NCBI GenBank assembly: GCA_964517425.1
Contig: CAZFFM010000001.1
Span: forward strand, 1-36,174
DNA: 36,174 bases
Direction: 5' to 3'
DNA from: an uncultured Ardenticatenales bacterium
GTDB lineage: Bacteria; Chloroflexota; Anaerolineae; Ardenticatenales; JAADHH01
The notes beneath the pieces were generated by a model. The model searched no databases, was not told the DNA's origin, and saw only the letters and a list, made by a program, of their open reading frames with translations. Positions 7,841 through 36,174 of this stretch are shown in pieces; positions within the stretch are counted from its first letter, which is position 1; every line of letters begins with the position of its first letter. Position numbers and translations under genes: made by a program.

Positions 7841-7844
7841 TTTG

Positions 7845-10642: not shown

Positions 10643-10788
10643 TCTGCTGACCAGAACATCTGCCCAAACCCTCCAAAATACCTATCGCAACCTGGCGGAG
10701 TTTGCCGACCGGCCCAAATAGCCACAACAGCACACGATTCTTTCGCGATATCTCCTGGTTACAGAGTATCTCTCTGCTCCATTTCGTG

Positions 10789-15606: not shown

Positions 15607-15718
15607 CGTGTTGCGTATTGCGTATTGCGTATTGCGTGTTGCGTTTTCACGTTTCACGTCTTTGCGTTCCCTATCTCTATCTCCACCCTCTATCTTCCAC
15701 CGTTCATCATTCATCACA
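15607..15718. repeat. Heptad array, about 16 in-register drifting units
   Basis: cgtgttg (cgtattg)x3 cgtgttg cgttttc acgtttc acgtctt tgcgttc cctatct ctatctc caccctc tatcttc caccgtt catcatt catcaca. Confidence 0.8.
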
Positions 15719-17568: not shown

Positions 17569-17858
17569 TTCGACCGATCTTCCTGTCGTTGCTGATACAC
17601 ATACTCGATGAAGTCATCAACTGACTCACTTTCGGGCCAAAAATCTACCCGTAAGCTCGCAATGTCCGTGAGTGGTTCGATTTGCTGCGTTTGCACGAAC
17701 TGTTCGAGCGTTCGCGGTTGCCAAAAATCTCCCTCTGGCCCTACAGCAGGATGATAGCTGCGATACAAAGAGTGAGAGATAACCCGTATAAGATTCAACT
17801 GTTCCAGTGGCGATAGTTCTTGCGTTGCTTCAATCATGGTTTGTAGTTTTGTGGTCAT
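17565..17858 (-). CDS. Antitoxin partner of VapC (family not recognised)
   Basis: 97 aa, translationally coupled to vapC, with GGGAGGA RBS and its own promoter and operator upstream. Confidence 0.65.
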   Translation of the reverse strand: MTTKLQTMIEATQELSPLEQLNLIRVISHSLYRSYHPAVGPEGDFWQPRTLEQFVQTQQIEPLTDIASLRVDFWPESESVDDFIEYVYQQRQEDRSN

Positions 17859-18170: not shown

Positions 18171-18254
18171 CACGCACCACGCACCACGCTCCACGCCCTA
18201 CGCCCCACGCCCTACGCCCCACGCCCTACGCCCCACGCCCTACGCCCCACGCCC
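18171..18254. repeat. Heptad array, 12 in-register units (CACGCCC/TACGCCC alternation)
   Basis: cacgcac x2, cacgctc, then (cacgccc tacgccc)x4.5. The array supplies the last 8 codons and the TAG stop of purB. Confidence 0.85.
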
Positions 18255-19617
18255 CGGCCCGCTCCGGCGCGTTGCCCACGTAGCCTTCCACGGTCATCAG
18301 CGCCAGGACATCGCCGTCCGGCAGATAGGCAGTGATTCGCTCGTCGGCCGCCAGCCGGTCGGCCAGCGGGTTCGGCTCGCCGCGTCGTACGGCTGCCCAC
18401 GCAGCCAGGCTGTGCTCGCGGATCACCTCGTGCATCGCCTGGCGGTCGGCGCCGGCGCGGGCCAGGGCCATCAGCAGCGGCTCCGTGGCCGCAAAGGGGC
18501 CGTAGGTCGCCAGATTTTGCGCCATGCGATCCTCGTCAACCACCAATCCCTCGACGATTCGCCGAGCGCAGCGCAACATCTCGTCGGTGGCCAGGAACGC
18601 CTGCGGCAGAATCACGCGCCGGTTCGCCGAATCGTCCAGCGTGCGCTCCAGCAGCGAGTTGGCGGCGTTGTCCCAGGCGACCGCCGGCAGATCGCGCACC
18701 AGCCGCGCCAGCGAACAGATTTTCTCAGCGGTGATCGGATTGCGCTTGAAGGGCATGGCGGACGAGCCGACCTGCTTCGCGCCGAACGGCTCGCTCCATT
18801 CGCCAAAGGGGGGTGACTGCAACAGCCGCAGGTCGAACGCCAGCTTGTGCAGCGACGCGGCCGCCCCGGCCAGCGCGCTCAGCACCTGCCAGTCCTGCCG
18901 GCGGGGATAGACCTGGGAAGTCACCGGCCACGCCTCCAGGCCCAAATCGGCCATCACCTGCGCTTCCATTTCAGCAGCGGACATCCCCGTCCCCTCGAGC
19001 AGTTTCGTGTACGAGGCTGCCGTACCGACCGCGCCCTTCAGTCCCTTGCCGCGCACGTCATCCCGCGCACGGGCGACGGCCTGCCGGTCGGCCAGCAAGT
19101 CCTGTGCATAGAGGGCCAGGCGGTAGCCGAGCGTGGTCGGCTCCGCCGGCTGGATGTGCGTGTAGGCCAGGCAAGGCGTCTTGGCGTAGCGCTCGATCTG
19201 TGCGGCCAGCGCTTCGAGCAGCGCGTCCAGCCCGGCCAGGATCAGGTCGAGCGAATCGCGCAGACGCAGGGCATCGGCGTTGTCCTCGATGTCCATGCTG
19301 GTCGCGCCGAGGTGCAGCTTGCCGCCGCCGGTCGGGCACTGCTCGGCGAAGGTGCGCAGCTCGGCCATCAGGTCGTGGTGGATTTCGGCCTCGATCTCCT
19401 GCGCCCGCTCGAAATCCACGTCATCCTGGTGCGCCTGCAAATCGGCCAGCTCGTCCGCTGAGATCAGACCGGCGTGGTGCTGCGCTGCCGCCAGTGCCAC
19501 CCAAACGCGTCGCCAGAGTCGCCGCTTGTTGGTCTCGCTCCACACCCTGCGCATCTCCGGCGAACCGTAGCGCCAGGTGAAGGGGGACAGAAATGTATCG
19601 TGTGTGTAAGAATTCAT
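18226..19617 (-). CDS. purB: Adenylosuccinate lyase
   Basis: 463 aa with HLGATSMDI and the GSSAMPFKRNP signature. GGAGG RBS lies upstream of the ATG at 19617. Confidence 0.95.
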   Translation of the reverse strand: MNSYTHDTFLSPFTWRYGSPEMRRVWSETNKRRLWRRVWVALAAAQHHAGLISADELADLQAHQDDVDFERAQEIEAEIHHDLMAELRTFAEQCPTGGGKLHLGATSMDIEDNADALRLRDSLDLILAGLDALLEALAAQIERYAKTPCLAYTHIQPAEPTTLGYRLALYAQDLLADRQAVARARDDVRGKGLKGAVGTAASYTKLLEGTGMSAAEMEAQVMADLGLEAWPVTSQVYPRRQDWQVLSALAGAAASLHKLAFDLRLLQSPPFGEWSEPFGAKQVGSSAMPFKRNPITAEKICSLARLVRDLPAVAWDNAANSLLERTLDDSANRRVILPQAFLATDEMLRCARRIVEGLVVDEDRMAQNLATYGPFAATEPLLMALARAGADRQAMHEVIREHSLAAWAAVRRGEPNPLADRLAADERITAYLPDGDVLALMTVEGYVGNAPERAGAWGVGRGA

Positions 19618-19626
19618 GGGCCTCCG

Positions 19627-19780
19627 GATTTTGGAATTTAGATTTTGGATTTTGGATTTCCGTGATATGTTTGCGCGTTGAAACGTTCCAACGTTTCACG
19701 TCCTCATGCTCCCCGCTCACCGCTCTACGCCCTCCGCTCCACGCTCCACGCTCTCCGCTCCACGCTCGGCGCTCTACGCG
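19627..19780. repeat. Heptad array, 22 in-register units filling the purQ-purB spacer
   Basis: gattttg gaattta gattttg gattttg gatttcc ... cacgtcc tcatgct ccccgct caccgct ctacgcc ctccgct ccacgct x2 ... A further 5 units at 19812-19846 lie inside the purQ 3-prime end. Confidence 0.85.
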
Positions 19781-20535
19781 CAGCCTACCGCACTCCGAAA
19801 CAGCCGCAACCCCACGCCCTCCGCTCCCCGCTCCACGCCCTCCGCCGAATGTGTCCAGGCCGGGTGTTGGTAGGGGGAGACGAAGCGTTCGGGGTGGGGC
19901 ATTAGGCCGAGAACGTTGCCGGCGGCGTTGCAGATTCCGGCGACCGCGTCCAGCGAGCCGTTCGGGTTGGCCGGATAGTCCGCTGCCGGACGGCCGTCGG
20001 GGGCAGCGTAGGTGAAGGCAATCTGCCCCTGCTCACGCCAGCAGGGCAGGTCACCCGCATCGGCGGGCACGAACTTCCCCTCGCCGTGGGCCACCGGCAA
20101 GGTGATCACCTCCGGCAGGTCTGCCGTCCACAGCGAGCGGCTTCGGTCCACGCGCAGGTGTACCCAGCGGCACTCGAATCGCCCGGAGTCGTTGGCCGTC
20201 AGCGTGGCCGCGGGGAGCAGGCCGGCCTTCACCAGCACCTGGAACCCGTTGCAGACGCCGAGCACCGGCTTGCCCGATTCGACGAAGCGCCACAGCGGTT
20301 CGCGCAGACGGTACACCAGGTCCACGGCGAGCAACTTGCCCGCGCCGAGTGCGTCGCCGTAGGTGAAGCCGCCGGGGATGGTCAGGATTTGGTAATCGTC
20401 CAGCCGCCGCTCCTCTCGCAGCAACTGGTTGACATGCACCAGTTCCGGCTCCGCGCCGGCCAGCCGCCACGCCTCTGCCGTCTCCCGGTCGCAATTCGAG
20501 CCGGGGCCTTGCAACACCAACACACGAGGTTTCAT
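19774..20535 (-). CDS. purQ: Phosphoribosylformylglycinamidine synthase, glutaminase subunit
   Basis: GVCNGFQ catalytic Cys, plus HGEG and MPHPER. The start is ATG 20535 (MKPRVLVLQ) or 20541. Confidence 0.9.
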   Translation of the reverse strand: MKPRVLVLQGPGSNCDRETAEAWRLAGAEPELVHVNQLLREERRLDDYQILTIPGGFTYGDALGAGKLLAVDLVYRLREPLWRFVESGKPVLGVCNGFQVLVKAGLLPAATLTANDSGRFECRWVHLRVDRSRSLWTADLPEVITLPVAHGEGKFVPADAGDLPCWREQGQIAFTYAAPDGRPAADYPANPNGSLDAVAGICNAAGNVLGLMPHPERFVSPYQHPAWTHSAEGVERGAEGVGLRLFRSAVGCA

Positions 20536-21117: not shown

Positions 21118-21576
21118 ATGAAACGAACCACATCGGGCGAGACCGATTTCGCGAGCTACCGCAAGGCCTGGCGACAGCGTTGGCGTCATGCCGAAGAACG
21201 CCGTCGAGAAAAGGCTTCCCGCGCACGCGCAGCAGCCGAATCTTGTGCACGTTTCCTTATCAAGACCTATCACGTTCACCGTGTCTACCTCTTTGGTTCA
21301 TTGGCCGGCTGGAGTCCCCTGCACGACCGGTCTGACATTGACTTGGCCGTGGAAGGACTGCCTCCCGGCCATGCTTACATTCAAGCCCTCACCCAACTAT
21401 GGCCACTCCTCCCACCTGGCATAGACCTGGACCTGGTTCCGATCGAAGACGCTCACCCCGACTTGGCGGAACGAATTCAAAGAGAAGGGATTTTGCTTTA
21501 TGATGGCACGACATTTTACCCCGCTATGCGCGGATATAGACCGCGAACTGAGCAACCTGAAACAATTGACCATTGA
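21118..21576 (+). CDS. Nucleotidyltransferase-domain protein (MNT-type antitoxin)
   Basis: Polymerase-beta-like NTase signature LFGSLAGWSPLHDRSDIDLAV (G-S ... D-x-D). Confidence 0.75.
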   Translation: MKRTTSGETDFASYRKAWRQRWRHAEERRREKASRARAAAESCARFLIKTYHVHRVYLFGSLAGWSPLHDRSDIDLAVEGLPPGHAYIQALTQLWPLLPPGIDLDLVPIEDAHPDLAERIQREGILLYDGTTFYPAMRGYRPRTEQPETIDH

Positions 21577-21976
21577 AGCCGAAGAAACCCTCGACGGAGC
21601 ACGACGGCAAGTCACTTTCCTGGAGCTGCGGGCTGCGGGTAGTATACTGCATGACTTCTACAGCGGTATCGAAAAGATATTTCGACGCATTGCCCTCGAA
21701 GTGGACGGGAGTTTGCCCGCAGGACCCGATTGGCACCTCCAACTGCTTCTTCGGATGGCCTCCCCCCTCCAAGAAGCACGCCCGGCAGTCATCAACGAAG
21801 ACCTGAAAAACCGGTTGGGCGAATACCTTCGTTTCCGACATCTCATACGCAACATTTACGGGTTTGAACTGCAATGGGATCGTTGCCATGACTTGCTGTA
21901 TGACCTCTTCGATCTGTTCGCCGACCTTTCCGCACAACTACAACGCTTTCAACAGTTCTTGCTCTCCCTCGAATGA
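21500..21976 (+). CDS. HEPN-like partner of the MNT protein (putative toxin)
   Basis: 158 aa and helical. The motif is YLRFRHLIRNIYGFEL, as I remember it from HEPN partners of MNT genes. It overlaps the MNT gene by 77 nt (an alternative TTG start lies at 21566). Its 3-prime end overlaps the convergent purSL 3-prime end by 39 nt. Confidence 0.55.
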   Translation: MMARHFTPLCADIDRELSNLKQLTIEAEETLDGARRQVTFLELRAAGSILHDFYSGIEKIFRRIALEVDGSLPAGPDWHLQLLLRMASPLQEARPAVINEDLKNRLGEYLRFRHLIRNIYGFELQWDRCHDLLYDLFDLFADLSAQLQRFQQFLLSLE

Positions 21977-24862
21977 CACCATCCCCTCCCCCCCCAGCAC
22001 CTCCCCCACCTGCGCCAACGGACAGCCGGCCAGCGCGGCCTCGAAGTTCGCGGCGTCCTCCGGGCGCACTTCCACCAGGAAGCGTCCGTTCGACTCGCTG
22101 AAGAGGATCGTGTCGGGGCGGGTCACGTCGGCGTCGCGCGGCACGCGGGCGAGGTCGAGCCGCAGGCCCAGCCGGCCGGCACGCGCCATCTCCGCGGCAG
22201 CCACGCCCAGTCCCCCGTCCGAGAGGTCGTGGCAGGCACGCACCAGCCCGTCGCGCATGGCGCGGTGCAGCGCGCGTACGGTCCGCGGCCCGCCCTCGGC
22301 CAACCCCGGCGCGCGTCGCCCAACAAATCCCTTTGCTTTGTAATACAGAGACCCGCCCATCTCATTGCGCGTCTGCCCGATGAGGTAGAGCCGATTTCCC
22401 GCTTCCTTTAGATCCATCGTCACCGCCCTACGCACATCCGGCACAATGCCCACTGCGGAGATGAGCAGTGTGCCCGGAATCGGGCGACGTTTGCCGGTCG
22501 CGTCCGCGTATTCGTTGTTCAGGCTGTCCTTGCCGGAGATGAAGGGCAAGCGGTAGGGCACGGCCCCGTCGTAGCACCCTTGCGCCGCGTGCAACAGCCC
22601 CCCCAGCCGGTCGGGGCGGCTCGGGTCGCCCCAGCAGAAATTGTCGAGGATCGCCACCCTCTCCGGGTCGGCACCGACAGCGACGACGTTGCGCAGCGCC
22701 TCGTCCACCGCCGAGACGGCCATCGCCCAGGGGTCAAGCGTGCCATAGCGCGGGTTGATGCCGCAACCGACGGCCACGCCACGCCAGCCGTTCGCCTCCA
22801 GCGGCTTGATCACCGCCCCGTCCGAGGGGCCGTCGCCGTGTGGCCCGACCAGCGGCTTGACCACCGTGCCCCCCTGTACCTCGTGGTCGTACCGGCGAAC
22901 GATGTCCGCCCGGCTGCGGACCGTGGGATGGGCCAGCAGCGCCTCCACCTCGCTGACCAGATCGTCCGGGCAGGGAAAATCGGGTTCGGGAAAATCGGGC
23001 GGTTCCCACGTGGCCTGCAAGTGACGGCGGGGACAGCCGCCGTGCAAGAACGTCACGCCCAACGCGCCGGCCGTCTTCCCATCGTAGCGCAGCGTCAATC
23101 GCCCGTCGCCGGTGAACTGGCCGATGACCGTGGCCTCCACATCCAGGTCGGCGCAGATCCGGATCACGCGTTCCACGTTCGCTGGCGGCACGGCCAGGAT
23201 CATCCGCTCCTGTGCTTCGGAGAGCCAGATTTCCCAGGGGGCCAGGCCCTGGTACTTGAGCGGCACACGTTCCAGGTGTACCGTTGCGCCGAGCTCGGCG
23301 GCCATTTCGCCGACGGATGAAGAGAGGCCGCCGCCGCCGCAATCGGTGATCGCGCTGTAGAGGCCGGCGTCACGTGCGACGAGGATCGCCTCCAGCATCT
23401 TCTTCTCGGTGATTGGGTCGCCAATCTGCACGGCGCTGCCGGCGATTTCGCCCGTCTCGTGGGTCAGCTCCAGCGAGGAGAAGGTCGCGCCGCGCAGCCC
23501 GTCCCGTCCGGTACGCCCACCGACCAGGACGATTTTGTCGCCGGCGCGCGGGTTCGTGCGGTGCAGGCCCTTCGGCGCAATGCCCAGGCAGCCGCAGTAG
23601 ACCAACGGGTTGCCGATGTAGCCTTCGTCATAGAGGATTGCGCCGTTGACCACCGGCACGCCCAGCTTGTTGCCGTAGTCTTCGATTCCGTGAACGACCC
23701 CGCTTTCGATCCGGCGGGGGTGCAGCACGCCGGCCGGCAAGTCGGCGAAGTCCAGGTCTTGCGGGCCGAAGCAGAGGACGTCGGTGGCGGCGAGGGGGCG
23801 CGCGGAGACCCCGATGATGTCGCGCACCACACCCCCCACGCCGGTGTTCGCGCCGCCGAAGGGTTCGATGGCCGAGGGGTGGTTGTGCGTCTCCACTTTG
23901 AAGGAAAGCTCCAGCTCGTCATCGAAATCGATCATGCCGGCGTTGTCCACGAAGGCGGAACGCACCCAGGGGCGGGCCGCTTGCGCAGTGGCCTGGCGGA
24001 TGTAGTCGAGCAGAGACCAGTCGCGCCCGTCGTCCAACGCGGGCGACCGGCGGGCGATCCGTCCGCGGAACGTCTTGTGCCCGCAGTGTTCGGACCAGGT
24101 CTGGGCCAGGGTTTCCAGTTCCAGGTCGGTGGGGTCGCGGCCCGCGTCGCGGAAGTAGGCCCGGATGGCCTGCATCTCGGCCAAGTCGAGCGAGAGGCGG
24201 CGTTCCGCGCTGATTTGTTCCAGGTCTGCATTCGACGCCTGGCGCAGGGGGACGATCTGCACATACCCCACCTGGCTGAGGTCCGGCGGTGCAAAGCCGG
24301 GTTGGGCCGCTCCTAACGTGTAGGTCTGGATGGCGTCGTTGCAGAGGAGGCGACGGGCAATGCGGTGGACCTGCGCTTCGCTCAGGTCGCCGGCCAGCTC
24401 GTAGCGCAGCCCTGTGCGCACCTGTCGCAGTCCCGTCACGCCGATGACCTGCGTGCCGTGGAGCAGCGCTTCCGCCTGTGCGTCGGTCACTCCGGGGCGG
24501 AGGGTGACTTCTACGGAATGCGTTTCGGTATTTCGATTTTGGATTTTGGATTTTGGATTTTGGATTGCTGTGTTGCCTATTGCGGGTTGTGGATCACGTT
24601 TCACGCTCCACGCTCCACGCTCGACGCTCCACGCTCCACGTGCCACGTGCCACGTCGTCTGCGTGACCGGATCGGCCAGCAGAGCGCGACAGATTGTTTC
24701 AACGTCGCCCTCTGTCAAACCACCGCGAAGGAAATAGAGATCGCAAACAACGACATTCTTTACCCCTGCGATTCCCAAATCGCGAATGGCGCGAGACACG
24801 GCATTTCCACGTGGATCGAACTGACCTTCCGAAAGGCACACATCGACGCGAAACGTTTTCAT
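21938..24862 (-). CDS. purL: Phosphoribosylformylglycinamidine synthase, PurS-PurS-PurL fusion
   Basis: One uninterrupted frame. It contains a PurS-like domain (MKTFRVDVCLSEGQFDPRGNAV...), a heptad-encoded linker, a second PurS-like domain (VEVTLRPGVTDAQAEA...), and then the PurL core (WSEHCGHKTF and two AIR-synthase-like repeats). The start is ATG 24862. Confidence 0.85.
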   Translation of the reverse strand: MKTFRVDVCLSEGQFDPRGNAVSRAIRDLGIAGVKNVVVCDLYFLRGGLTEGDVETICRALLADPVTQTTWHVARGAWSVERGAWSVKRDPQPAIGNTAIQNPKSKIQNRNTETHSVEVTLRPGVTDAQAEALLHGTQVIGVTGLRQVRTGLRYELAGDLSEAQVHRIARRLLCNDAIQTYTLGAAQPGFAPPDLSQVGYVQIVPLRQASNADLEQISAERRLSLDLAEMQAIRAYFRDAGRDPTDLELETLAQTWSEHCGHKTFRGRIARRSPALDDGRDWSLLDYIRQATAQAARPWVRSAFVDNAGMIDFDDELELSFKVETHNHPSAIEPFGGANTGVGGVVRDIIGVSARPLAATDVLCFGPQDLDFADLPAGVLHPRRIESGVVHGIEDYGNKLGVPVVNGAILYDEGYIGNPLVYCGCLGIAPKGLHRTNPRAGDKIVLVGGRTGRDGLRGATFSSLELTHETGEIAGSAVQIGDPITEKKMLEAILVARDAGLYSAITDCGGGGLSSSVGEMAAELGATVHLERVPLKYQGLAPWEIWLSEAQERMILAVPPANVERVIRICADLDVEATVIGQFTGDGRLTLRYDGKTAGALGVTFLHGGCPRRHLQATWEPPDFPEPDFPCPDDLVSEVEALLAHPTVRSRADIVRRYDHEVQGGTVVKPLVGPHGDGPSDGAVIKPLEANGWRGVAVGCGINPRYGTLDPWAMAVSAVDEALRNVVAVGADPERVAILDNFCWGDPSRPDRLGGLLHAAQGCYDGAVPYRLPFISGKDSLNNEYADATGKRRPIPGTLLISAVGIVPDVRRAVTMDLKEAGNRLYLIGQTRNEMGGSLYYKAKGFVGRRAPGLAEGGPRTVRALHRAMRDGLVRACHDLSDGGLGVAAAEMARAGRLGLRLDLARVPRDADVTRPDTILFSESNGRFLVEVRPEDAANFEAALAGCPLAQVGEVLGGEGMVSFEGEQELLKAL
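24535..24653. repeat. Composite heptad array, 17 in-register units (119 nt), inside the purSL ORF
   Basis: (gattttg)x4 gattgct gtgttgc ctattgc gggttgt ggatcac gtttcac (gctccac)x2 gctcgac (gctccac)x2 (gtgccac)x2. Confidence 0.85.
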
Positions 24863-27503: not shown

Positions 27504-27629
27504 GATTTTGGATTTTAGATTTGCGATTTTGGATTGGTGGGAAACGTGGTACGTATTGCGTGATGCGTGTTGCGTCTGACGCATCACGCATCACGTTTTA
27601 CCTGACACGTGACACTTGACACCTGACAC
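27504..27629. repeat. Composite heptad array, 18 in-register units (126 nt)
   Basis: gattttg gatttta gatttgc gattttg gattggt gggaaac gtggtac gtattgc gtgatgc gtgttgc gtctgac gcatcac x2 gttttac ctgacac gtgacac ttgacac ctgacac. Confidence 0.9.
27559..27600 (+). terminator. Intrinsic terminator of lepB, built from inverted heptads
   Basis: An 18-bp stem pairs cgtgatgcgtgttgcgtc with gacgcatcacgcatcacg, with one mismatch. It is followed by TTTT and lies 68 nt after the lepB stop. Confidence 0.6.
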
Positions 27630-27656
27630 CTTATTTCCATAACAGCAGCGGGAGCC

Positions 27657-28394
27657 GTGATGGACGAAGCAAGTATCCGTGCCCTTGTCCGGCGTGTACT
27701 GGATGAAATGGGAGACTCAAAGCCCACCGGGCCAATGAATGATGGCAGAGGGGAACCGCTTGTTTCTGCTCCCCTCGCGCTGGTCACCCAAGCGGACGTG
27801 GAAGCGTTGCCGCCGGGCGGGCAACTGCTCATCGCCGCGAAGGCCATCATCACGCCGCTGGCCCGAGACGTGGCCAAAGAGCGGCGCGTGACTCTCGTTC
27901 GTACGGCGGCGCCGGCGCAACCGGAAGACCGCGCGCCGGAGCGGCCCGCCCGCGTCGCCATCGGCGCGGACCACGGCGGGTATGCGCTGAAGGAAATCTT
28001 GCGCCGTTACTTGCAAGACCAAGGCTACGACGTGCGCGATTGCGGCACGCACGGCACGCAGTCGGTGGACTACCCTGACATCGCTTTTCAGGTCGCTCGC
28101 CTGGTCGCCGAAGGGGCGGTGGACCGGGGCATCATGATCGATGGCGCGGGAATCGGCTCCTGCATGGCAGCGAACAAAGTGCCCGGCGTGCGGGCCAGCC
28201 TCTGCTACGACGTTTCCAGCGCGCGGAACGCCCGCGAACACAACGACGCCAACGTCCTCACCCTGGGGGGCAAGCTGATCGGCGAAGCATTGGCCAAGCA
28301 AATCATCAAGACCTGGCTGGAGATGCCCTTCGCCGGCGGTCGCCATGCCGGTCGCGTGGAAAAGATCATGGCTGTGGAGAAACAATGGCAGTAG
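27657..28394 (+). CDS. rpiB: RpiB/LacAB-family sugar-phosphate isomerase with an approximately 100-aa N-terminal extension (BMC-targeted)
   Basis: RpiB core ([14 protein letters not shown] ... [10 protein letters not shown] ... HNDANVL). The N-terminal amphipathic helix [15 protein letters not shown] resembles a BMC encapsulation peptide. Confidence 0.85.
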
Positions 28395-29257
28395 ACATCG
28401 AGCAACTGGTCGCCCTGATCACCAAAGAGGTCATGGTCAAGCTGCGCACGCAGGAGGCGGAAGAGCGCGGCGACCTGCCGGTCTTCCGCTGCTACGACTG
28501 CAGCCAGGGGCGGTGTGCCTGGACCTGCACCGACAAGGTGCGCCGGGTGATGGATGCCGGCGCGACACGCATCGCTGCATCGCTCGGTGCCGGCGGCGTG
28601 GCCACCGACATTGCCCGCATCATTGATCACACGCTGCTCAAGGCGGACGCCACGCCAGCGCAGATCGCCCAGCTTTGCTACGAGGCACAGAAGTACGGGT
28701 TCGCGTCCGTCTGCATCAACCCCGGCTACGCTGCGCTGGCCGCGCAGTTGCTGGCCGGTTCGCCGGTGAAGGTCTGCACCGTTGTGGGGTTTCCGCTGGG
28801 TGCCACCAGCACGGAGGCCAAAGTGGCCGAGACGGTGCAGGCGCTGGACGACGGGGCCACGGAGATTGACATGGTGATCAACATCGGTGCGCTGAAGGCG
28901 GGCGACTACGAGCTGGTGGAGCGAGACATCGCCGCCATCGTGCGTGCGGCACACGGGCGGGGCGCACTCGTCAAGGTGATCATCGAGGCAGCGCTGTTGA
29001 CCGACGAAGAGAAGGTGAAGGCGTGTACGCTGGCCAAAGCGGCGGGGGCCGACTACGTGAAAACCTCGACCGGTTTTGGGCCGGGCGGCGCGACGACACA
29101 CGACGTGGCCCTCATGCGCCAGACGGTGGGCGCGGGTATGGGTGTCAAGGCGGCCGGCGGGATCGGCACCCTAGAGAAGGCGCGCGAGATGGTCCATGCC
29201 GGCGCCACACGCATCGGGGCCAGCGCCGGTGTGCGCATCGTGGCACAGGGGACGTAG
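28385..29257 (+). CDS. deoC: Deoxyribose-phosphate aldolase with N-terminal encapsulation-peptide-like helix
   Basis: DERA core ([36 protein letters not shown] Schiff-base Lys region, VKAAGGI). The N-terminus is [17 protein letters not shown]. Confidence 0.9.
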
Positions 29258-29299
29258 GGCGGGAAGCATGGATCGCCAAGATGAGAACAGGAGTGTCCA

Positions 29300-29578
29300 G
29301 TGCGTGCAGTCCCTCCGTATCTCTTGACGGATCATGCACGAATGGAGATGGCTCGCCGCCAGATCAAAGAGTCAGATATTGCTAGAATCTTGGCCTTACC
29401 TGAGCAAACTGAAAGGGTACGTGAGGGGCGCATGGTCTACCAATCTCGGATAAAGTGTGGAAATCCTCCTAAACTACACCTGCTCAGGGTATTTGTGGAT
29501 GTCGACAGGGATCCCCCGGAGGTCGTAACGGCATACCGGACCAGCAAGGTTAAAAAGTACTGGAGAACTGAACAGTGA
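29300..29578 (+). CDS. DUF4258-like toxin
   Basis: 92 aa with the motif LTDHARMEMARRQIKESDI. The GTG start has AGGAG 6 nt upstream, and there is a GTGA overlap with the next gene. Confidence 0.65.
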   Translation: MRAVPPYLLTDHARMEMARRQIKESDIARILALPEQTERVREGRMVYQSRIKCGNPPKLHLLRVFVDVDRDPPEVVTAYRTSKVKKYWRTEQ

Positions 29579-29781
29579 GAGTCATTTACGACCCCGCGAC
29601 AGATACGTTGACGGTCATCCTGGCTGAAACGCAAGTCGCTGAAAGCGACGAGGATAAACCCGGCGTGATCCTAGACTACGATGCGGGAGGAAGTCTTGTA
29701 TCTCTCGAGATTCTTGACGCCTCTCACCGTGTGGCAGTACCAACCGGCATAGAGTATCAGGTCATGCAAAGAGTCGCATAG
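29575..29781 (+). CDS. DUF2283-like antitoxin
   Basis: 68 aa. YDPATDTLTVIL ... GVILDYDAGGSLVSLEILDAS is the typical DUF2283 pattern. Confidence 0.65.
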   Translation: MRVIYDPATDTLTVILAETQVAESDEDKPGVILDYDAGGSLVSLEILDASHRVAVPTGIEYQVMQRVA

Positions 29782-29805
29782 GGAATGTAGTCGCACACGC
29801 ACGCG

Positions 29806-29874
29806 ATGGTACACGCCGGTGCCACGCGCATCGGGGCCAGCGCCGGTGTGCGCATCGTGGCGCAGGGGGCGTAG
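29806..29874 (+). pseudogene. Duplicated deoC 3-prime end, copy 2
   Basis: Encodes [22 protein letters not shown]-stop. It shows 63 of 69 nt identity to 29189-29257, and 5 of the 6 differences are synonymous. Confidence 0.85.
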
Positions 29875-29892
29875 CGCGAAGGGAGAAGGTGG

Positions 29893-30123
29893 ATGACCAG
29901 TACAGCGATCACACAACAACTTAACGAACAAATTGTACAACTTCCGCTTGGGCTTCAACAAAGGGTTCTTGATTTTGCACAAGCGCTGGTGATTTCTTCT
30001 CCCAAAGGAATCCCGGGAAAGCAACTGCTTCGCTTTGCAGGCACCATGGACCATGATGATATTCGGGCAATCGAACAAGCCATCGAAGCCGGGTGCGAGA
30101 AAGTAGACGTGAATGAATGGTAG
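29893..30123 (+). CDS. Antitoxin partner of VapC (family not recognised)
   Basis: 76 aa, with GGAGAAGG RBS and an 11-nt overlap with the PIN gene. Confidence 0.6.
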   Translation: MTSTAITQQLNEQIVQLPLGLQQRVLDFAQALVISSPKGIPGKQLLRFAGTMDHDDIRAIEQAIEAGCEKVDVNEW

Positions 30124-30502
30124 ATTCCTCTTGGATACAAATGTAATCATTGCGCTTTTTGCGGGAGAGGCCGGCCTTCGGAACCAATTGGAGCAGGCAA
30201 AGGAAGTCTTTGTGCCCACGATTGCACTAGGAGAACTCTACTTCGGAGCTGGAAAGTCCGGACGAGCAAAAGAGAATCTGGGACGGCTGGATGAATTTGC
30301 AGTTAGCGCTTCTGTCCTTGCCTGTGACTTGGGCACGGCGAGAGAGTACGGCGTCATTAAGAACTCATTACGAGAGAAGGGCAGGCCCATCCCCGAGAAT
30401 GACATTTGGATCGCGGCCATTGCCAGGCAGTACGGGTTGACTCTGGTCACCCGAGATGCGCATTTTGACGGAATCAGTGAACTGGCAATGGAGGCCTGGT
30501 AG
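30113..30502 (+). CDS. vapC: PIN-domain toxin, VapC family
   Basis: 129 aa with FLLDTNVIIAL, ENDIWIAA and LVTRDAHF. Confidence 0.85.
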   Translation: MNGRFLLDTNVIIALFAGEAGLRNQLEQAKEVFVPTIALGELYFGAGKSGRAKENLGRLDEFAVSASVLACDLGTAREYGVIKNSLREKGRPIPENDIWIAAIARQYGLTLVTRDAHFDGISELAMEAW

Positions 30503-30543
30503 TCCACGCCGGTTCCACGCGCATCGGGGCGCAGGGGGCGTAG
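30502..30543 (+). pseudogene. Duplicated deoC 3-prime end, copy 3 (with in-frame 24-nt deletion)
   Basis: Encodes VHAGSTRIGAQGA-stop and starts at the last base of the vapC stop codon. Confidence 0.8.
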
Positions 30544-30548
30544 GGCGA

Positions 30549-30604
30549 ATGTCAATTGTCAACGATCAACTTTCAATGGCTAACGTAACACGTAACACGC
30601 AACA
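30549..30604. repeat. Heptad array, 8 units, inverted relative to 11944-12062
   Basis: atgtcaa ttgtcaa cgatcaa ctttcaa tggctaa cgtaaca cgtaaca cgcaaca. The array runs directly into the eutN RBS (GAGGAG). Confidence 0.8.
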
Positions 30605-30615
30605 CGAGGAGCCCC

Positions 30616-30906
30616 ATGCTCATTTGTCGTGTCGTAGGATCGGCGGTTTCGACCGTCAAAGATGAAAAGTTGAAAGGGCTGAAGCTGCTCATTGTCCGTG
30701 AGGTGACGGTGCGCAACCGGCTGGTGGGCAAGCCGCTGGTCGCCGTCGACTCGGTCGGCGCGGGCGAGGGGGAGCTGGTCTTCGTCGCCCAGGGCAGTTC
30801 CGCCCGTCAGACCCACCTGACGCAGAGCGCGCCGGTAGACGCCACGATCATGGCCATCGCCGACTCGTTGGAGGTGGGAGGGAAAGTGACGTATCGTAAG
30901 GCGTAG
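30616..30906 (+). CDS. eutN: BMC vertex (pentamer) protein, EutN/CcmL/PduN family
   Basis: 96 aa with the BMC-P signature MLICRVVGSAVSTVKDEKLKGLKLLIV ... [13 protein letters not shown]. Confidence 0.9.
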   Translation: MLICRVVGSAVSTVKDEKLKGLKLLIVREVTVRNRLVGKPLVAVDSVGAGEGELVFVAQGSSARQTHLTQSAPVDATIMAIADSLEVGGKVTYRKA

Positions 30907-30917
30907 AGGACTGTGAT

Positions 30918-31787
30918 ATGAGTTTCAAAAAGTACACCTCAGGCCAACATACGATCTACCATGGCGATGCTTTGAACGTCCTGCCAACCTTGCAGGACGA
31001 AAGCGTTGACCTGATTTTTGCTGATCCACCATACAACATAGGAAAGCAATTTGCGAGCTTTACTGATAGGTGGTCATCAAATGAAGCTTATGTTGAATGG
31101 TGTAGAAAATGGATCGACCTTTGTGTTCAGAAATTGAACACGACTGGGACAATGTACATAATGGCAAGCACGCAAGGTATGCCCTATATTGACATGCACC
31201 TTCGTGACAAAGTCACAATTCTTTCGCGAATAGTTTGGCACTACGACAGTTCTGGTGTTCAGGCAAGAAGATGTTTTGGTTCCCTGTACGAGCCTATTCT
31301 GCATTGTGTGAAAGACCCTAAAGAGTACACTTTTAATGCCGACCAGATTTTAGTTGAAGCCAGAACAGGCGCAAAAAGGGAACTCGTTGACTATCGAAAA
31401 GTCCCCCCAGTGCTTTATAATACCAAGAAGGTACCTGGTAACGTTTGGTACTTCCCCCGCGTACGCTACCGAATGCCGGAGTATGAGAAGCACCCTTCAC
31501 AGAAACCTGAAGCATTGCTTGAGCGAATCATCGCTGCCAGCAGCAATCCAGGCGATCTAGTCCTGGATCCGTTTGCAGGAACGTTTACAACTTGTGCCGT
31601 CGCAAAGCGTATGGGAAGAACATCAATTGGAATAGAAATCCAGGAGGAATTCATCAAAATCGGTTTGCGAAGGGTTGGCGTGGCCACAACTTACAATGGG
31701 GAAAAACTTAAACCCCCTCAGAAGAACTTCATCCACCGCGCAAAGAAGTCCACACCCCATTCGGTACAACTAGAGCTTGGGGTCTAA
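30918..31787 (+). CDS. Beta-class N6-adenine or N4-cytosine DNA methyltransferase
   Basis: Motif IV FADPPYN precedes motif I LDPFAGTFTT (the beta-class order). The gene is AT-rich and starts 11 nt after the eutN stop. Confidence 0.85.
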   Translation: MSFKKYTSGQHTIYHGDALNVLPTLQDESVDLIFADPPYNIGKQFASFTDRWSSNEAYVEWCRKWIDLCVQKLNTTGTMYIMASTQGMPYIDMHLRDKVTILSRIVWHYDSSGVQARRCFGSLYEPILHCVKDPKEYTFNADQILVEARTGAKRELVDYRKVPPVLYNTKKVPGNVWYFPRVRYRMPEYEKHPSQKPEALLERIIAASSNPGDLVLDPFAGTFTTCAVAKRMGRTSIGIEIQEEFIKIGLRRVGVATTYNGEKLKPPQKNFIHRAKKSTPHSVQLELGV

Positions 31788-32907
31788 GTTTGTGAAAGAG
31801 CATAGCTTTACGCCTGTAATCAGGCAGATACTGTCCGAGGAATTCGGCCCTGCGTATGAAGAAATCTTCAAACAGAGTGAATTGTTGCAGTATCTCAATG
31901 TAAAGACGATCTCAGCCTCTCGTGGGTCAAAGGCCCGTGGTTCATTCGGAAACATCTATGCAATCTACGTGCTGGTCGAGGATTATGTGAGGCGTGGTTT
32001 TCACATTCGTGGGGATTATGAAGATGCCGAGGGAGCACAGTTTTCCGCTCTCTTCAAACGTCAGAGGGGTTTGCCCTTTGGGAGCAGACTCCAAAACCAT
32101 GCTCTCAACCATCGTCTTAATCAGGAATTCAGAAAGTGCTTTCCAATAGCCAATATTCAACCAATACTGCGCGATGCCGAGACTCGCCAGTATTGGATAA
32201 ACGAACACTTGTTAGCGGTCGAGGTACATGAACGAGAGTACAACCTTGCAGAGGCTGTAATCAGAATAATCGATGCTTACGCCGACGCTAAGCAAGAAGC
32301 TTTCAATTCGTTCATTCGCGATTGCGTGAAAATGCAGCACATATCGGACGAAAGCCCTGAAGCAGTGGTAGACTTCATCGCCAATCTGCTGAGGCCCAAA
32401 GTTGATGCACGGATTTTTGAGATTGTGAGCTTCGCAATTTTGAAGGCACATTACGGAGACAAGTCGTTCTTTTGGGGATGGGATATAGACAGCATAGAAG
32501 AAGAAAAGCTCGCTCTATACAAAACGGGGCGTACCAACGCGAACGATGGAGGAATTGACTTTGTGATGCGCCCCCTAGGACGATTCTTCCAAGTGACTGA
32601 AACGCTTGATGTGAGGAAGTATTTCTTGGATATTGACAAAGTACAGAAGTATCCAATCACATTTGTAGTGAAAACAGAAATGGGGATGCCTGAGATAAAG
32701 CAAACCATTGAGAAGCAGGCCGAAGAGCAGTACCCTGTACGTGCTATCGTCAGGCGGTATATGGAATGTATAGAGGAAACCATAAATATACCGACATTGC
32801 TAGAACGGCTGCAAGAAGTTGTGGAGGCAGGAGACCTAAATACAGTCATAAAAGAAATCGTAACGCATAGCAAGGTAGAGTTCAATATGATTGACCAAAA
32901 GACGTAA
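31777..32907 (+). CDS. Putative type II restriction endonuclease
   Basis: 376 aa, AT-rich, and overlapping the methyltransferase gene (TTG 31777, or GTG 31792). The DGGIDFVMRP...QVTETLDVRK segment resembles Mrr-cat/PD-(D/E)xK. The call rests mainly on context. Confidence 0.6.
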   Translation: MGSKFVKEHSFTPVIRQILSEEFGPAYEEIFKQSELLQYLNVKTISASRGSKARGSFGNIYAIYVLVEDYVRRGFHIRGDYEDAEGAQFSALFKRQRGLPFGSRLQNHALNHRLNQEFRKCFPIANIQPILRDAETRQYWINEHLLAVEVHEREYNLAEAVIRIIDAYADAKQEAFNSFIRDCVKMQHISDESPEAVVDFIANLLRPKVDARIFEIVSFAILKAHYGDKSFFWGWDIDSIEEEKLALYKTGRTNANDGGIDFVMRPLGRFFQVTETLDVRKYFLDIDKVQKYPITFVVKTEMGMPEIKQTIEKQAEEQYPVRAIVRRYMECIEETINIPTLLERLQEVVEAGDLNTVIKEIVTHSKVEFNMIDQKT

Positions 32908-33228
32908 CACGCAGGCGGAGGAGGAACTCGTGCCTGTTCAGATGGTAATTGAATTGAGAGAAAAACAGGGAATCCAACCAATTCTTCAATCTATCGAATC
33001 GTACAAAGTGCAACTCACGGCCAGTATCGAGCGCGGCAAACGTCACCTTCGTCAATTTGAGCAACAATACGGCGTGGGTACAAGCTCACTTCTTGCAAGC
33101 GATGACGGCCGAAGACCTGGAAGGTGGTGACCTGGAATACGTAGAATGGGCGGGGGAAGCCAAACTGCTGGAAGCACTGAAAGCTGGGTTGTTGGAACTA
33201 GAGTATGCCAAGTATCACCTTCCCTGAA
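32891..33228 (+). pseudogene. Frameshifted small antitoxin-like gene
   Basis: Frame 1 gives ...RHLRQFEQQYGVGTS and then nonsense. Another frame continues [47 protein letters not shown]-stop. The shift lies near 33077-33085. Confidence 0.5.
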
Positions 33229-33263
33229 TACGCTCAACGGATTGAGCACATTTTGAATCATGT

Positions 33264-33417
33264 GGTCGGCGCGGGCGAGGGGGAGCTGGTCGCCGTCGCT
33301 CAAGGTAGTTCCGCCCGCCAGACCCACCTGACGCAGAGTGCGCCGGTAGACGCCACGATCATGGCCATTGCCGACTCGCTGAAGGTGGGAGGGACCGTGA
33401 CGTATCGTAAGGCGTAA
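33264..33417 (+). pseudogene. Duplicated eutN 3-prime end (51 codons)
   Basis: 141 of 154 nt are identical to 30753-30906 with no indels. It encodes [50 protein letters not shown]-stop. The ORF-track entry 33205..33417 is a chimeric read-in. Confidence 0.85.
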
Positions 33418-33420
33418 TGC

Positions 33421-33765
33421 TTGGGGGAGATGATCGTGATTACTCTTGAGAGGGCAAAAGAAATGATCTCTTCGATGACCCGTGCCGAAAAGGCTCAGGT
33501 TCTACAGTGGGTAGCCCGCGACTTTGGGGAAGCGTTTCCAGGCATCGAGAGCTCACCGCAAGTATCTGGCGGCGAGGCTCACATCGTGCGCACCCGCATT
33601 CCGGTTTGGGTGTTGGTGCAAGCCATGAAGTTGGGAGCAAGCGAAGCAGACTTGCTTAGAATGTACCCAACATTACGTGCAGAGGACTTGGTCAACGCAT
33701 GGGCCTATTATCGCTCGCATCGGGACGAGATTGAGCGACAAATCGTTGAGAATGAAGCGGCGTGA
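33421..33765 (+). CDS. DUF433 antitoxin-like protein
   Basis: The motif is AHIVRTRIPVWVLVQAMKLGASEADLLRMYPTLRAEDLVNAWAYY. The start is ambiguous (TTG 33421, ATG 33430 or GTG 33436). Confidence 0.75.
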   Translation: MGEMIVITLERAKEMISSMTRAEKAQVLQWVARDFGEAFPGIESSPQVSGGEAHIVRTRIPVWVLVQAMKLGASEADLLRMYPTLRAEDLVNAWAYYRSHRDEIERQIVENEAA

Positions 33766-33768
33766 GAC

Positions 33769-34137
33769 ATGGCCCGACTGTTTGCAGACGAGAATTCCCC
33801 CTTGCCTGTTGTCGAAGAACTGCGCCGGCTCGGACACGATGTGCTCACAGTACAGGAAGTCGGCATGGCCAATCAAATGGTTCCAGATAAATCGGTATTA
33901 GACTTTGGGACTGCTGACAATCGAATCGTGTTAACACTCAACCGCAAGCACTTCGTCCACTTGCACAGAAGGTCGTCGGAGCATGAAGGTATTATCGTGT
34001 GCACAGTCGATCTCGACTTCGCCGGTCAGGCCTTGCGCATTCATGAAGCTGTTGGATCGCAGGAGTCGTTGCCTGGAGAACTGATCCGGGTGAACCGGCC
34101 TCGTCAAGGTGGCGAAGTAATTCCGAAGAGGTCGTGA
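33769..34137 (+). CDS. DUF5615 (PIN-like, Mut7-C-related) toxin-like protein
   Basis: The N-terminus RLFADENSPLPVVEELRRLGHDV is typical of DUF5615 partners of DUF433. Confidence 0.7.
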   Translation: MARLFADENSPLPVVEELRRLGHDVLTVQEVGMANQMVPDKSVLDFGTADNRIVLTLNRKHFVHLHRRSSEHEGIIVCTVDLDFAGQALRIHEAVGSQESLPGELIRVNRPRQGGEVIPKRS

Positions 34138-34139
34138 TT

Positions 34140-35627
34140 ATGTCCGCAACGTATGACAAGGACTTGCAGTCCATCCAGGAAGCGCGGCAGCTGGCCGTGG
34201 CTTGCCGCAACGCGCAACGCGAATTCGCCCACTTCTCGCAGGAAGAGGTGGACCGCGTGGTGGCCGCCATGGCCGACGCCGGCTACCGCGCCGCCGAGCG
34301 GCTGGGAGTCATGGCCCACGACGAGACCGGCTACGGCGTGCCCAGCCATAAGAAGCTGAAGAACGAATTCGCCAGCCGCACGGTGTGGGAATCGATCCGC
34401 GACGTGAAGACCGCCGGCGTGATCCGCCGCGACGACGCGCGCGGCATCGTCGAGATCGGCTGGCCGGTGGGCGTCATCGTCGGCCTGACGCCGAGCACGA
34501 ACCCGACATCCACGATCCTGTACAAATCGCTGATCGCCCTCAAAGCGCGCAACGGCATCGTCTTTGCGCCGCACCCTTCGGCCGTGAAGTGCTCGCTGGA
34601 GACGACACGCATCATGGCCGAAGCCGCCCAACACGCCGGCGCACCGGCCGGGCTGCTCGCCTGCATGTCGAAAATCTCCCTGCCCGGTACGCACGAGCTG
34701 ATGGGCCACTGGGCAGTGAACCTGATCCTGGCCACCGGCGGCGCGGCGATGGTGAAGGCCGCGCACAGCGCCGGCAAGCCGGCCTATGGCGTGGGACCGG
34801 GCAACGTCCCGGTCTACGTGGACCGCAGCGCGGATGTGCCCCAGGCCGCCTTCGACATCGTCAACAGCAAATCGTTCGATTGCAGCGTCATCTGCTCGTC
34901 GGAGCAGGCGGTGGTGGCCGACCGCCCCATCGCCGCCCAACTGCGGCGGGAAATGGAGCGCAACGGCGCATACTTCGTGGACCAGGCCCGCGCCGACGCC
35001 CTGGGCCGGCGACTCTTCCGGCCGGACGGCACGAACTGGCCCGAAGTCGTCGGCAAGACACCGCAGCAGTTGGCCGAGATGAGCGGCATTCAGGTGCCGG
35101 GCGACGCGCGCGCCCTGGTCGCCGACCTGAACGCGGTCGGGCCGGAACACCCGCTGTCACGCGAGAAGCTGACCACCGTCCTCGGCTTCTACGAAGAGGA
35201 GGGCTGGATCAAGGGGTGCGAGCGATGCATCGAGCTGCTCAAGTTCGGCGGCGACGGGCACACGCTGGCCATCCACGCGCAGGACGAAGAGGTGATCATG
35301 GCCTTTGGGTTGGAGAAGCCGGCCTTCCGCATCGTGGTCAACACGGCAGCCACCGCCGGCGCCATCGGCCTGACCACCGACCTTGATCCGGCCATGACCC
35401 TGGCCACGGGAGGCATGGGCGGCGGCATCAGCAGCGACAACATAACGGTACGCCACCTGCTGAACACCAAGCGGCTGGCCTACGGCCGGCGTCCCTGGCC
35501 GCTGAAAGCCGAAGCAAAGCGGAGACCGCAAGCGACGAGACCGGCACCAACGGCAACCGGCGGCTATTCCGAGGCCGAGGTCGAGGCCATCGTCCGCCGC
35601 GTGGTGCGGGAGTTAAGAGGGGGATAG
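34140..35627 (+). CDS. Acylating (CoA-dependent) aldehyde dehydrogenase, EutE/PduP-like, with C-terminal encapsulation-peptide-like helix
   Basis: The catalytic region SFDCSVICSSEQAVV can be compared with FDNGxICASEQ. The C-terminus has a Pro/Ala-rich linker and then SEAEVEAIVRRVVRELRGG-stop. The start is ATG 34140 (or GTG 34134). Confidence 0.85.
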   Translation: MSATYDKDLQSIQEARQLAVACRNAQREFAHFSQEEVDRVVAAMADAGYRAAERLGVMAHDETGYGVPSHKKLKNEFASRTVWESIRDVKTAGVIRRDDARGIVEIGWPVGVIVGLTPSTNPTSTILYKSLIALKARNGIVFAPHPSAVKCSLETTRIMAEAAQHAGAPAGLLACMSKISLPGTHELMGHWAVNLILATGGAAMVKAAHSAGKPAYGVGPGNVPVYVDRSADVPQAAFDIVNSKSFDCSVICSSEQAVVADRPIAAQLRREMERNGAYFVDQARADALGRRLFRPDGTNWPEVVGKTPQQLAEMSGIQVPGDARALVADLNAVGPEHPLSREKLTTVLGFYEEEGWIKGCERCIELLKFGGDGHTLAIHAQDEEVIMAFGLEKPAFRIVVNTAATAGAIGLTTDLDPAMTLATGGMGGGISSDNITVRHLLNTKRLAYGRRPWPLKAEAKRRPQATRPAPTATGGYSEAEVEAIVRRVVRELRGG

Positions 35628-35912
35628 TTGGCAGGCAATACTATTGTGATCGTGTGGACCGAGTACTTGAGATACAGGGCCAAACTGCGCAAATTCGACC
35701 TTGCCAAAGTGGAGGAAGTTGTGCGGCACTCAACTGAACGGTATCTCGACACGGCAACAGGCCGTTTCGTCGTCGTGGATCGACATGAAAACATGCTGGT
35801 GATGATCCCGTATGAGACAGATGTAGATTCCATGATACCGATAACTATCCATGCAACGACAAGGCAGCAGATTAGATTCCGGCTTAAAACAGGGAGGCTC
35901 ACCTATGTATGA
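35628..35912 (+). CDS. Putative toxin partner of a DUF2283 protein (family uncertain)
   Basis: 94 aa. The TTG start comes directly after the aldehyde dehydrogenase stop, with GAGGGGG upstream. There is an 8-nt overlap with the next gene. Confidence 0.5.
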   Translation: MAGNTIVIVWTEYLRYRAKLRKFDLAKVEEVVRHSTERYLDTATGRFVVVDRHENMLVMIPYETDVDSMIPITIHATTRQQIRFRLKTGRLTYV

Positions 35913-36132
35913 CAAAAACAAAACCCATTTGGTATACTTTGAAAAAGAGGACGTGTTACACCTGGCAATCTCTGACGAGCCTGAGGCCAAGAGCGTTGAA
36001 CTCAGTCCGAACGTGACGGCGGAACTGAACAAGAAAGGGGAATTGATCGGCGTTGAGATCCTCAATGCCAGTACTTTCATGCGGGATTCCATTCTCGATT
36101 CGGTACAAGCAAAGATGTTACAACTGGCTTGA
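35905..36132 (+). CDS. DUF2283-like antitoxin
   Basis: The start at ATG 35905 has GGGAGG upstream. The pattern is EKEDVLHLAISDEPEAKSVELSPNVTAELNKKGELIGVEILNAS. Confidence 0.6.
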   Translation: MYDKNKTHLVYFEKEDVLHLAISDEPEAKSVELSPNVTAELNKKGELIGVEILNASTFMRDSILDSVQAKMLQLA

Positions 36133-36174
36133 AAGTAGTAGCTTCACGACGAATAATACGAAAGGAGCTTCATA

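Follow-up and report, generated by a model that had tools for sequence, protein, structure and literature searches.

Sugar-phosphate-utilising (SPU) bacterial microcompartments (BMC) are defined by the enzymes DeoC and RpiB, and loci of the SPU6 type have been reported in Anaerolineae; a pduL-type phosphotransacylase is no defining feature of the class (Sutter et al. 2021, PMC8217296). Concerning the gain of small modules, insertions of restriction-modification (R-M) units with long target duplications spanning start or stop codons were described by Furuta, Abe and Kobayashi in 2010, and the insertion of such a unit into an operon-like cluster has been described once (PMC2853133; Nobusato et al. 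2000 cited there). Anchored illegitimate recombination was proposed by Kirchberger et al. in 2017 for the stacked effector-immunity arrays of type VI secretion systems (T6SS), the orphan arrays of Rhs being discussed in the same work (PMC5361080). We analysed here a stretch of 36,174 nt from an uncultured Ardenticatenales bacterium (contig CAZFFM010000001.1; the window, which is the whole contig), of which positions 27657-36174 are, by their gene content, the promoter-proximal part of a SPU6-type BMC operon from an Ardenticatenales-like Chloroflexota bacterium. This operon carries six independently acquired and co-oriented selfish units, probably on a single transcript and probably stacked by recombination between strains. 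The parts are of kinds already known (a SPU6 locus, toxin-antitoxin (TA) pairs and a R-M unit), and what is new is their arrangement together with the trail of gene relics that would record its assembly.

Gene identities were obtained from an open reading frame (ORF) listing combined with Pfam and NCBIfam profile searches. The core genes follow the order rpiB-like, deoC, eutN (coding for the BMC-P protein) and acylating aldehyde dehydrogenase (AldDH), and every gene lies on the + strand. The rpiB-like sugar-phosphate isomerase gene (27657-28394) matched Pfam LacAB_rpiB over residues 100-237 of its product and NCBIfam RpiB, with a 98-aa N-terminal extension resembling the C-terminus of PduM (Pfam PDU_like at residues 27-78; the NCBIfam PduM match is weak). 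The deoC gene (28385-29257) codes for a deoxyribose-phosphate aldolase matching TIGR00126 over residues 76-286 with 274 bits, and with a N-terminal extension of 75 aa. The eutN gene for the BMC-P pentamer shell protein (30616-30906; Pfam EutN_CcmL, 2e-29) is preceded by a leader with a heptamer tandem repeat at 30583-30606, detected with a tandem repeat finder. The acetylating (CoA-acylating) AldDH gene (34134-35627) scored 579 bits with TIGR02518 EutH_ACDH, just below the equivalog cut-off of 620, while Pfam Aldedh was above its own cut-off. Both SPU signature enzymes, the DeoC-type aldolase (PF01791) and the RpiB-type isomerase (PF02502), exceeded the curated cut-offs of Pfam and NCBIfam. 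A previous reading of the same DNA made without database searches (the sequence-only reading) had placed the locus in the SPU class; this placement was confirmed and narrowed to SPU6, with a gene order found in about 150 Chloroflexota loci, and all the genes it had named were recovered at their positions on the + strand.

The related loci came from a one-genome-per-species scan, which gave 80 loci, and a metagenome scan, which gave a further 80, resulting in 154 non-redundant loci. Their order is constant: RpiB, DeoC, EutN, AldDH, BMC-H, one or two genes, a 209-aa tandem-BMC-like protein, EutN2 and EutN3. The median junctions of these 154 loci are 39 nt for RpiB-DeoC, 79 nt for DeoC-EutN, 29 nt for EutN-AldDH, 157 nt for AldDH-BMC-H and 67 nt for EutN2-EutN3. 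The window exhibited a deoC-eutN junction of 1,358 nt compared to this median of 79 nt and a maximum of 358 nt (125 related loci), and an eutN-AldDH junction of 3,227 nt compared to the median of 29 nt. The window shares with the SPU6 loci of Anaerolineae (PMC8217296) the RpiB/DeoC signature, the acylating AldDH, the BMC-P protein and the conserved gene order, but differs from them in that inserted selfish DNA makes up 60% of the locus and junctions of median 29-157 nt have grown to 0.5-3.2 kb. The BMC-P gene is present on the contig, which has no BMC-H or BMC-T gene and ends at base 36174, 42 nt past the last cassette; because the window is the whole contig, any further shell genes of this genome lie out of sight. 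In the two closest relatives, a Chloroflexota metagenome-assembled genome (MAG) that is the sister genome (L001, 87-92% nt identity) and an Ardenticatenales MAG (L002), the shell genes follow 3' of AldDH: a BMC-H (PF00936, 1.3e-29 in L001), a probable BMC-T, which is the 209-aa tandem-BMC-like protein with a sub-threshold BMC match in both genomes, and two further BMC-P genes each. Shell genes are accordingly expected past the contig end in the window's own genome, so that their presence downstream, as predicted by the sequence-only reading, holds for the close relatives, the contig itself stopping before them. The same reading proposed to look for a pduL-type gene, and no pduL-type or PTAC-family match was found among the Pfam-scanned ORFs downstream of AldDH in L001 and L002, a scan that covered part of the ORFs.

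Between and after these core genes we found six inserted two-gene modules. Four are intact TA-like pairs, a fifth is a type II R-M pair and the sixth is a TumA/TumE pair in decay. They run, without exception, in the direction of the operon, and together the cassette DNA amounts to 5.1 of 8.5 kb, 60% of the region. The GC content at third codon positions (GC3) is 0.45-0.6 in the cassette genes vs 0.74-0.88 in the core genes. The earlier proposal that each junction after deoC holds an addiction or defence module is thus borne out by low-GC cassettes; the modules had been counted as five and are six. The genes are co-directional, as had been noted, and separated by gaps of 0-42 nt or overlapping, except for two gaps of 111-113 nt which hold relics of deoC, the one before eutN also containing the native leader.

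Cassette 1 consists of a DUF4258 gene (29300-29578) and a DUF2283 gene (29575-29781), both identified by Pfam, overlapping by 4 nt and common to L001. In cassette 2, a VapB-like gene for 76 aa (29893-30123), the product of which showed only a weak Pfam match to DUF2281, precedes a PIN/VapC gene (30113-30502; Pfam PIN, 1.9e-18). The genes of cassette 3 code for an adenine (N6_N4) methyltransferase (30918-31787), which scored 465 bits with NF008572 against a cut-off of 292, and for a putative restriction endonuclease of 376 aa (starting at 31777 or 31792 and ending at 32907). The latter has no Pfam match and no sequence match in the PDB, and is a member of a family, >6,000 proteins strong, to which several sources give the name 'restriction endonuclease'. 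The methyltransferase and endonuclease genes recur together in two other, unrelated contexts, and cassette 3 is a putative type II R-M pair that would be mobile as a unit, with a predicted restriction activity. It occupies the eutN-tumA spacer, of 15 nt in L001, without long flanking duplication. A candidate duplication of the leader (repeat family D19), in which 20 of 25 bases at the right end of the R-M unit agree with the eutN leader, was put down to chance, since it extends over the endonuclease stop codon and short repeats of this sort are numerous in the region.

Cassette 4 is a remnant. Its first gene is a tumA-like antitoxin pseudogene (32931-33227, +) with an extra base at about 33082 in comparison with its L001 orthologue, an intact gene for 98 aa (9341-9637 of L001) to which it is 94% identical at the nt level with a single-base gap in L001. 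Since the L001 protein has a weak NCBIfam TumA match and a TumE-domain ORF follows its gene, the frameshifted gene noticed previously can now be named a TumA-like antitoxin pseudogene. The TumE-like toxin of L001 (9615-10017) is itself split into two overlapping frames by an extra base after 'GAATAT'. Cassette 5 comprises a DUF433 gene (33421-33765) and a DUF5615 PIN-like gene (33769-34137), identified by Pfam and absent from L001; the 3-nt gap between the two is kept in unrelated contigs. The DUF5615 product is about 10 residues longer at the C-terminus (34108-34137) than its homologues of 111-113 aa, and this extension carries the likely AldDH ribosome-binding site and overlaps the AldDH start. 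Cassette 6 begins at the base right after the AldDH stop codon, with a gene for a 94-aa protein (35628-35912) overlapping by 8 nt a DUF2283 gene (35905-36132; Pfam). This pair is conserved with its 8-nt overlap in an unrelated context, and the relatives of the 94-aa protein invariably occur as the partner upstream of a DUF2283 gene. Neither Pfam nor NCBIfam gave a match for the 94-aa protein, and BLASTP showed no similarity to DUF4258 proteins. Its AlphaFold model (pLDDT 93.9) had the toxins RelE, YoeB, MqsR and HigB as top PDB matches, all weak (best E 0.04, TM 0.46-0.58), and might therefore represent a RelE/ParE-like fold, weakly indicated by this model.

The four TA-like pairs are small adjacent co-oriented genes with overlaps or gaps of 3-11 nt, and they include toxin-type families (PIN, DUF5615, DUF4258 and the weak RelE/ParE-like fold). 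DUF433/DUF5615 and 94-aa/DUF2283 are each found as a unit in contexts unrelated to this one, and the same family pairs were found in two more distant Chloroflexota loci, L004 and L005. A toxin activity neutralised by the partner is predicted for these pairs.

We then compared the cassette content with that of the relatives. The AldDH of L001 and L002 are 96-97% identical to that of the window at the aa level (97% for L001), and the cassettes differ between these close relatives, as expected from independent insertions, so that the independence of the modules claimed in the sequence-only reading is retained. Only cassette 1, with its deoC relic, and the tumA gene are common to the window and L001. 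In L001 the deoC relic directly joins the eutN leader, which makes this genome an empty site for VapBC, and the R-M unit, DUF433/DUF5615 and cassette 6 are missing as well (four window cassettes counting VapBC). Instead, L001 carries TumA/TumE with a frameshifted toxin, HicB/HicA after AldDH and a MNT-HepT ORF after BMC-H; its operon has five cassettes. The MNT-HepT ORF (12402-13304 of L001) combines nucleotidyltransferase (MNT-like) and HepT domains and lies between BMC-H and the next shell-operon gene. TumE is broken differently in the two genomes, truncated in the window and frameshifted in L001, and the antitoxin is intact only in L001. L002 carries HicB/HicA after AldDH and, between EutN2 and EutN3, a pair formed by a 94-aa protein gene and a DUF2204-like nucleotidyltransferase gene (3993-4866); L001 retains the first gene of this pair (14835-15104), the nucleotidyltransferase being lost. 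The homology of the window to both L001 and L002 ends at the AldDH stop codon.

More distant Chloroflexota sometimes carry pairs at the same junctions: DUF433/DUF5615 in L004, an unnamed gene with DUF2283 in L005, DUF4160/DUF2442 in L081, and DUF7718/DUF5647 as well as DUF5678 with an aspartyl protease in L129. For this reason, the colonisation of the operon appears as a recurrent event in Chloroflexota, which is extreme only in the clade of the window. The identity between the window and L001 is a mosaic, with blocks of 100% beside blocks of 67-80%, and cassette 1 is 98-100% identical between the two whereas its flanks are 88-94% identical (dS of 0.03-0.10 vs 0.17-0.76 for the core genes). 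This mosaic and the far higher similarity of cassette 1 indicate gene flow between the lineages of the window and L001. Segments 28373-28572 and 29273-29472 show 99-100% identity to L001 and lie beside blocks of 67-90%, which makes the locus a recombination mosaic of the two lineages.

The sequence-only reading had overlooked a further class of features, which are partial copies of the upstream core genes: two 3' pseudo-copies of deoC and one 3' copy of eutN. The deoC copies derive from the last 81 nt of the gene segment, 29181-29261 (+; repeat families D2-D4). Relic 1 (29798-29878, +) includes the stop codon, is 89% identical to this segment and is also found in L001. Relic 2 (30502-30549, +) is a second pseudo-copy with an internal deletion of 24 nt, followed by the native deoC-eutN spacer and the eutN leader. 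Compared to the functional gene, the deoC copies show 5 synonymous and 1 non-synonymous change, in both genomes, and the two non-coding copies compared to each other likewise show 5 synonymous for 1 non-synonymous difference. As decay in place would not keep codon phase, these copies suggest a sampling from functional alleles.

The third relic is a chimeric ORF (33205-33417, +) in which the first 21 codons of tumE are fused in frame to codons 47-96 of eutN. The eutN 3' copy in it (33264-33416, 153 nt) is 92% identical to 30753-30905, and the alignment with L001 places the tumE-eutN join inside a stretch of 28 nt with 22 of 28 bases matching, a microhomology joint. DUF433 starts 3 nt after the chimeric ORF, so this eutN relic does not flank a single insert. 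Its interpretation as an old tandem paralogue was rejected: tandem EutN paralogues elsewhere are 58-72% identical vs 94% here, a difference that also makes the fragment recent.

These observations are consistent with the following route, which we infer from the arrangement of the relics. Strains of the lineage would carry different cassettes at one junction. Incoming DNA from another strain would pair homologously in the flanking core gene, which acts as an anchor, while the other side would be joined illegitimately via microhomology. The resident cassette would not be replaced, both alleles would end in tandem, and a partial 3' end of the upstream core gene would be left between the stacked alleles; the resident gene might be truncated in the process. 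The likeness to the Rhs/CDI (contact-dependent inhibition) orphan and T6SS arrays (PMC5361080) is that modules from other strains stack on a conserved flank as anchor, leaving pieces of the conserved gene's 3' end and inactivated toxins whose partners are kept. The window differs from these arrays in its anchors, which are ordinary metabolic and shell genes and not a polymorphic toxin gene, and in that TA and R-M families with no relation to each other are stacked, at several of the operon's junctions.

Several points weigh against this stacking by recombination. No donor allele, such as eutN-DUF433-DUF5615-AldDH or deoC-VapBC-eutN, was found, and in the homologue search for a donor the best DUF5615 homologue was 77% identical and in another context. 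The collections searched contain two close relatives only, L001 and L002; the metagenome scan gave no relative closer than 65-66% identity, and an exact-protein look-up of AldDH gave no match. The argument from synonymous changes is built on six differences per comparison. There is no relic at the R-M unit and cassette 6 in the window, nor at HicBA, MNT-HepT and TumAE in L001, and, because several cassettes are without relic, plain insertion or allelic replacement must also operate. Finally, all the sequences are metagenome assemblies, among which the one identical to the window may not be independent.

The alternative which survives best is that each cassette entered alone by some mechanism duplicating 45-150 nt of target, the copies having then diverged in place with no recombination between alleles. 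The insertions of Furuta et al. (PMC2853133) were recognised as inserts of <20 kb without mobility genes, with direct repeats of >30 bp and a single copy at the empty site, and with R and M genes inside. Cassettes 1 and 2 lie between direct repeats (81 nt and about 72 nt), and the VapBC cassette agrees with the repeat and empty-site features, lying between 29798-29878 and 30502-30549 where L001 has one copy and no cassette. The pattern of repeats often spanning start or stop codons also matches, and elsewhere in the window a low-GC gene for 219 aa with no family match, upstream of purF (9983-10642, -), is bracketed at 9787-9831 and 10716-10760 by a 45-nt repeat of the purF start region with its ribosome-binding site, the two copies being 80% identical. 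It is one more insert with a long duplication of a core-gene end. The units of the window thus resemble the published insertions as small units without mobility genes, of GC below that of the host, at gene boundaries, with repeats of >30 nt spanning stop or start codons and with an empty site. They differ in that the flanked inserts are TA-like pairs and hold no R and M genes, and the R-M unit, the very type that defines this class, is without long duplication in the window. Moreover, the eutN relic flanks no single insert, being joined to the truncated tumE at microhomology with a different cassette next to it, and the differences between copies are biased to synonymous sites even between two non-coding copies, a bias that neutral decay in place would not give. 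The long-target-duplication class, a purely descriptive one, fits cassettes 1 and 2 and not the eutN relic, and as an account of the whole array we consider it doubtful.

BMC operons are believed to require that their shell and enzyme genes be expressed in balance. In comparison with L001, the ratio of non-synonymous to synonymous substitution rates (dN/dS) is 0.23 for RpiB, 0.08 for DeoC, 0.13 for EutN and 0.05 for AldDH, showing that the core genes are under purifying selection. As EutN and AldDH lie 3' of cassette 1, which is common to both genomes, the downstream genes were kept under selection with a cassette in front of them. At the sequence level the operon is still functional. The scan of the region found no terminator-like site between genes on the + strand, and neither a Rfam family nor a tRNA was detected in the window. 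The promoter scan gave six promoter-like sites vs 3.9 expected and was uninformative; between the genes, the cassettes have hardly any space, if any, in which a promoter of theirs could lie. Tight packing, lack of terminator-like sites and purifying selection on the core genes downstream of a common cassette make it likely that core genes and cassettes are co-transcribed as one transcript. An operon tolerating 60% of foreign DNA under purifying selection would be a natural test of the interruption that operon expression can bear.

It was also considered that the addiction modules are kept because they protect a dispensable catabolic locus or tie toxin expression to BMC induction. The cassette density is about 3 times higher in the operon (60%) than outside it in the window (about 21%), all the units share one orientation and are tightly packed, and TA pairs recur at the same junctions in other lineages, as this explanation would expect. 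However, TA pairs are also found within the purine operon of this genome, an operon in no need of stabilisation: a RelE-like/Phd pair between purF and purD (7529-8132, -) and a PIN gene with its upstream partner between purC (SAICAR synthetase) and purB (17164-17858, -), both of low GC3 and co-oriented with the purine operon. A HepT-like gene is present at 21500-21976. More than 100 relatives keep the BMC operon without any cassette, the cassette content turns over between close relatives, and toxins decay, with tumE broken in both genomes and the nucleotidyltransferase of the L002 pair lost in L001. The carriage of cassettes is, on this distribution, a genome-wide habit which is not specific of the BMC. 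The accessory DNA elsewhere, the cassette-free relatives and the decay of TumA/TumE argue against a special stabilising role, the idea of a stabilised dispensable locus is left unsupported, and we regard it as unlikely.

An assembly artefact, in which strain variants with single cassettes were threaded into one contig through the 3' sequences of deoC and eutN so that the stacking is unreal, is less probable still. The data are metagenomic and the relics resemble functional alleles of other strains, two properties which an artefact would share. A second contig, L167 (JGI metagenome 3300023444, Ga0256747_1005153, 7,515 nt), is 100% identical over 28660-36174 of the window and breaks at the same base (position 7515 of L167, 36174 of the window), which suggests a repeat or a strain-level branching of the assembly graph. 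On the other side, identity between the cassette-relic joints and the functional genes extends over 5-7 bases at most; so short an identity cannot mislead a k-mer assembler, and reads must span these joints. In addition, L001, from a different assembly record, has the same joint between cassette 1 and its relic and five cassettes in its operon, and the sole place where an artefact could arise is a switch inside relic 1.

A site-specific capture of promoterless cassettes in the manner of integrons, the repeated segments serving as recombination sites, would account for a co-oriented array of short cassettes with a recurring segment of about 50-80 nt in between, but was rejected as extremely improbable because the recurring segments copy the coding 3' ends of deoC and eutN, do not fold better than shuffled sequence (z-scores +0.4 and +0.7) and so give no attC-like structured sites, are missing from most cassettes, and are accompanied by no integrase or transposase among the Pfam-scanned ORFs of the window. 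TA cassettes are common in chromosomal integrons. The resemblance to chromosomal integron arrays such as the superintegrons of Vibrio lies in co-oriented tight cassettes, scant room for promoters and frequent TA modules, and the difference, besides the integrase and attC-like sites that were not found, in cassettes interleaved with essential parts of a functional operon.

Stacking by recombination between strains leads to a broader proposition, which we advance tentatively as a possibility: in this lineage, the conserved genes of ordinary operons may serve as homology anchors for an integrase-free cassette array, in which promoter-poor TA and R-M cassettes are swapped and stacked between strains at operon junctions and expressed from the host promoter. 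If true, this would functionally be an operon-embedded counterpart of integrons and defence islands with a diagnostic trail of core-gene 3' relics. The relics themselves let one read how cassettes free of mobility genes pass from strain to strain and accumulate. If the pattern were general in Chloroflexota, an integrase-independent route would be added for the spread of TA and defence genes, and a low-GC gene pair followed by a partial 3' copy of the gene upstream would be a signature for annotators.

Other features were observed outside the operon. In L001, an AAA_15/AAA_21 ATPase gene and a DUF3226 gene are located downstream of the operon (18536-20340). Among the upstream housekeeping genes of the window there are a gene for a Uma2-family putative endonuclease (5259-5957, -) and a low-GC Methyltransf_19 gene (2553-3371, -). 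Tandem heptanucleotide repeats (TTTGGAT, CACGCCC/CACGCTC, CGTATTG, ACGTAAC) fill intergenic regions at operon starts, at 11940-11977, 15607-15644, 18171-18255, 19626-19779, 24531-24655 and, upstream of rpiB, 27504-27631, in addition to the site before eutN, and have a likeness in the short tandem heptamer repeats of certain cyanobacteria.

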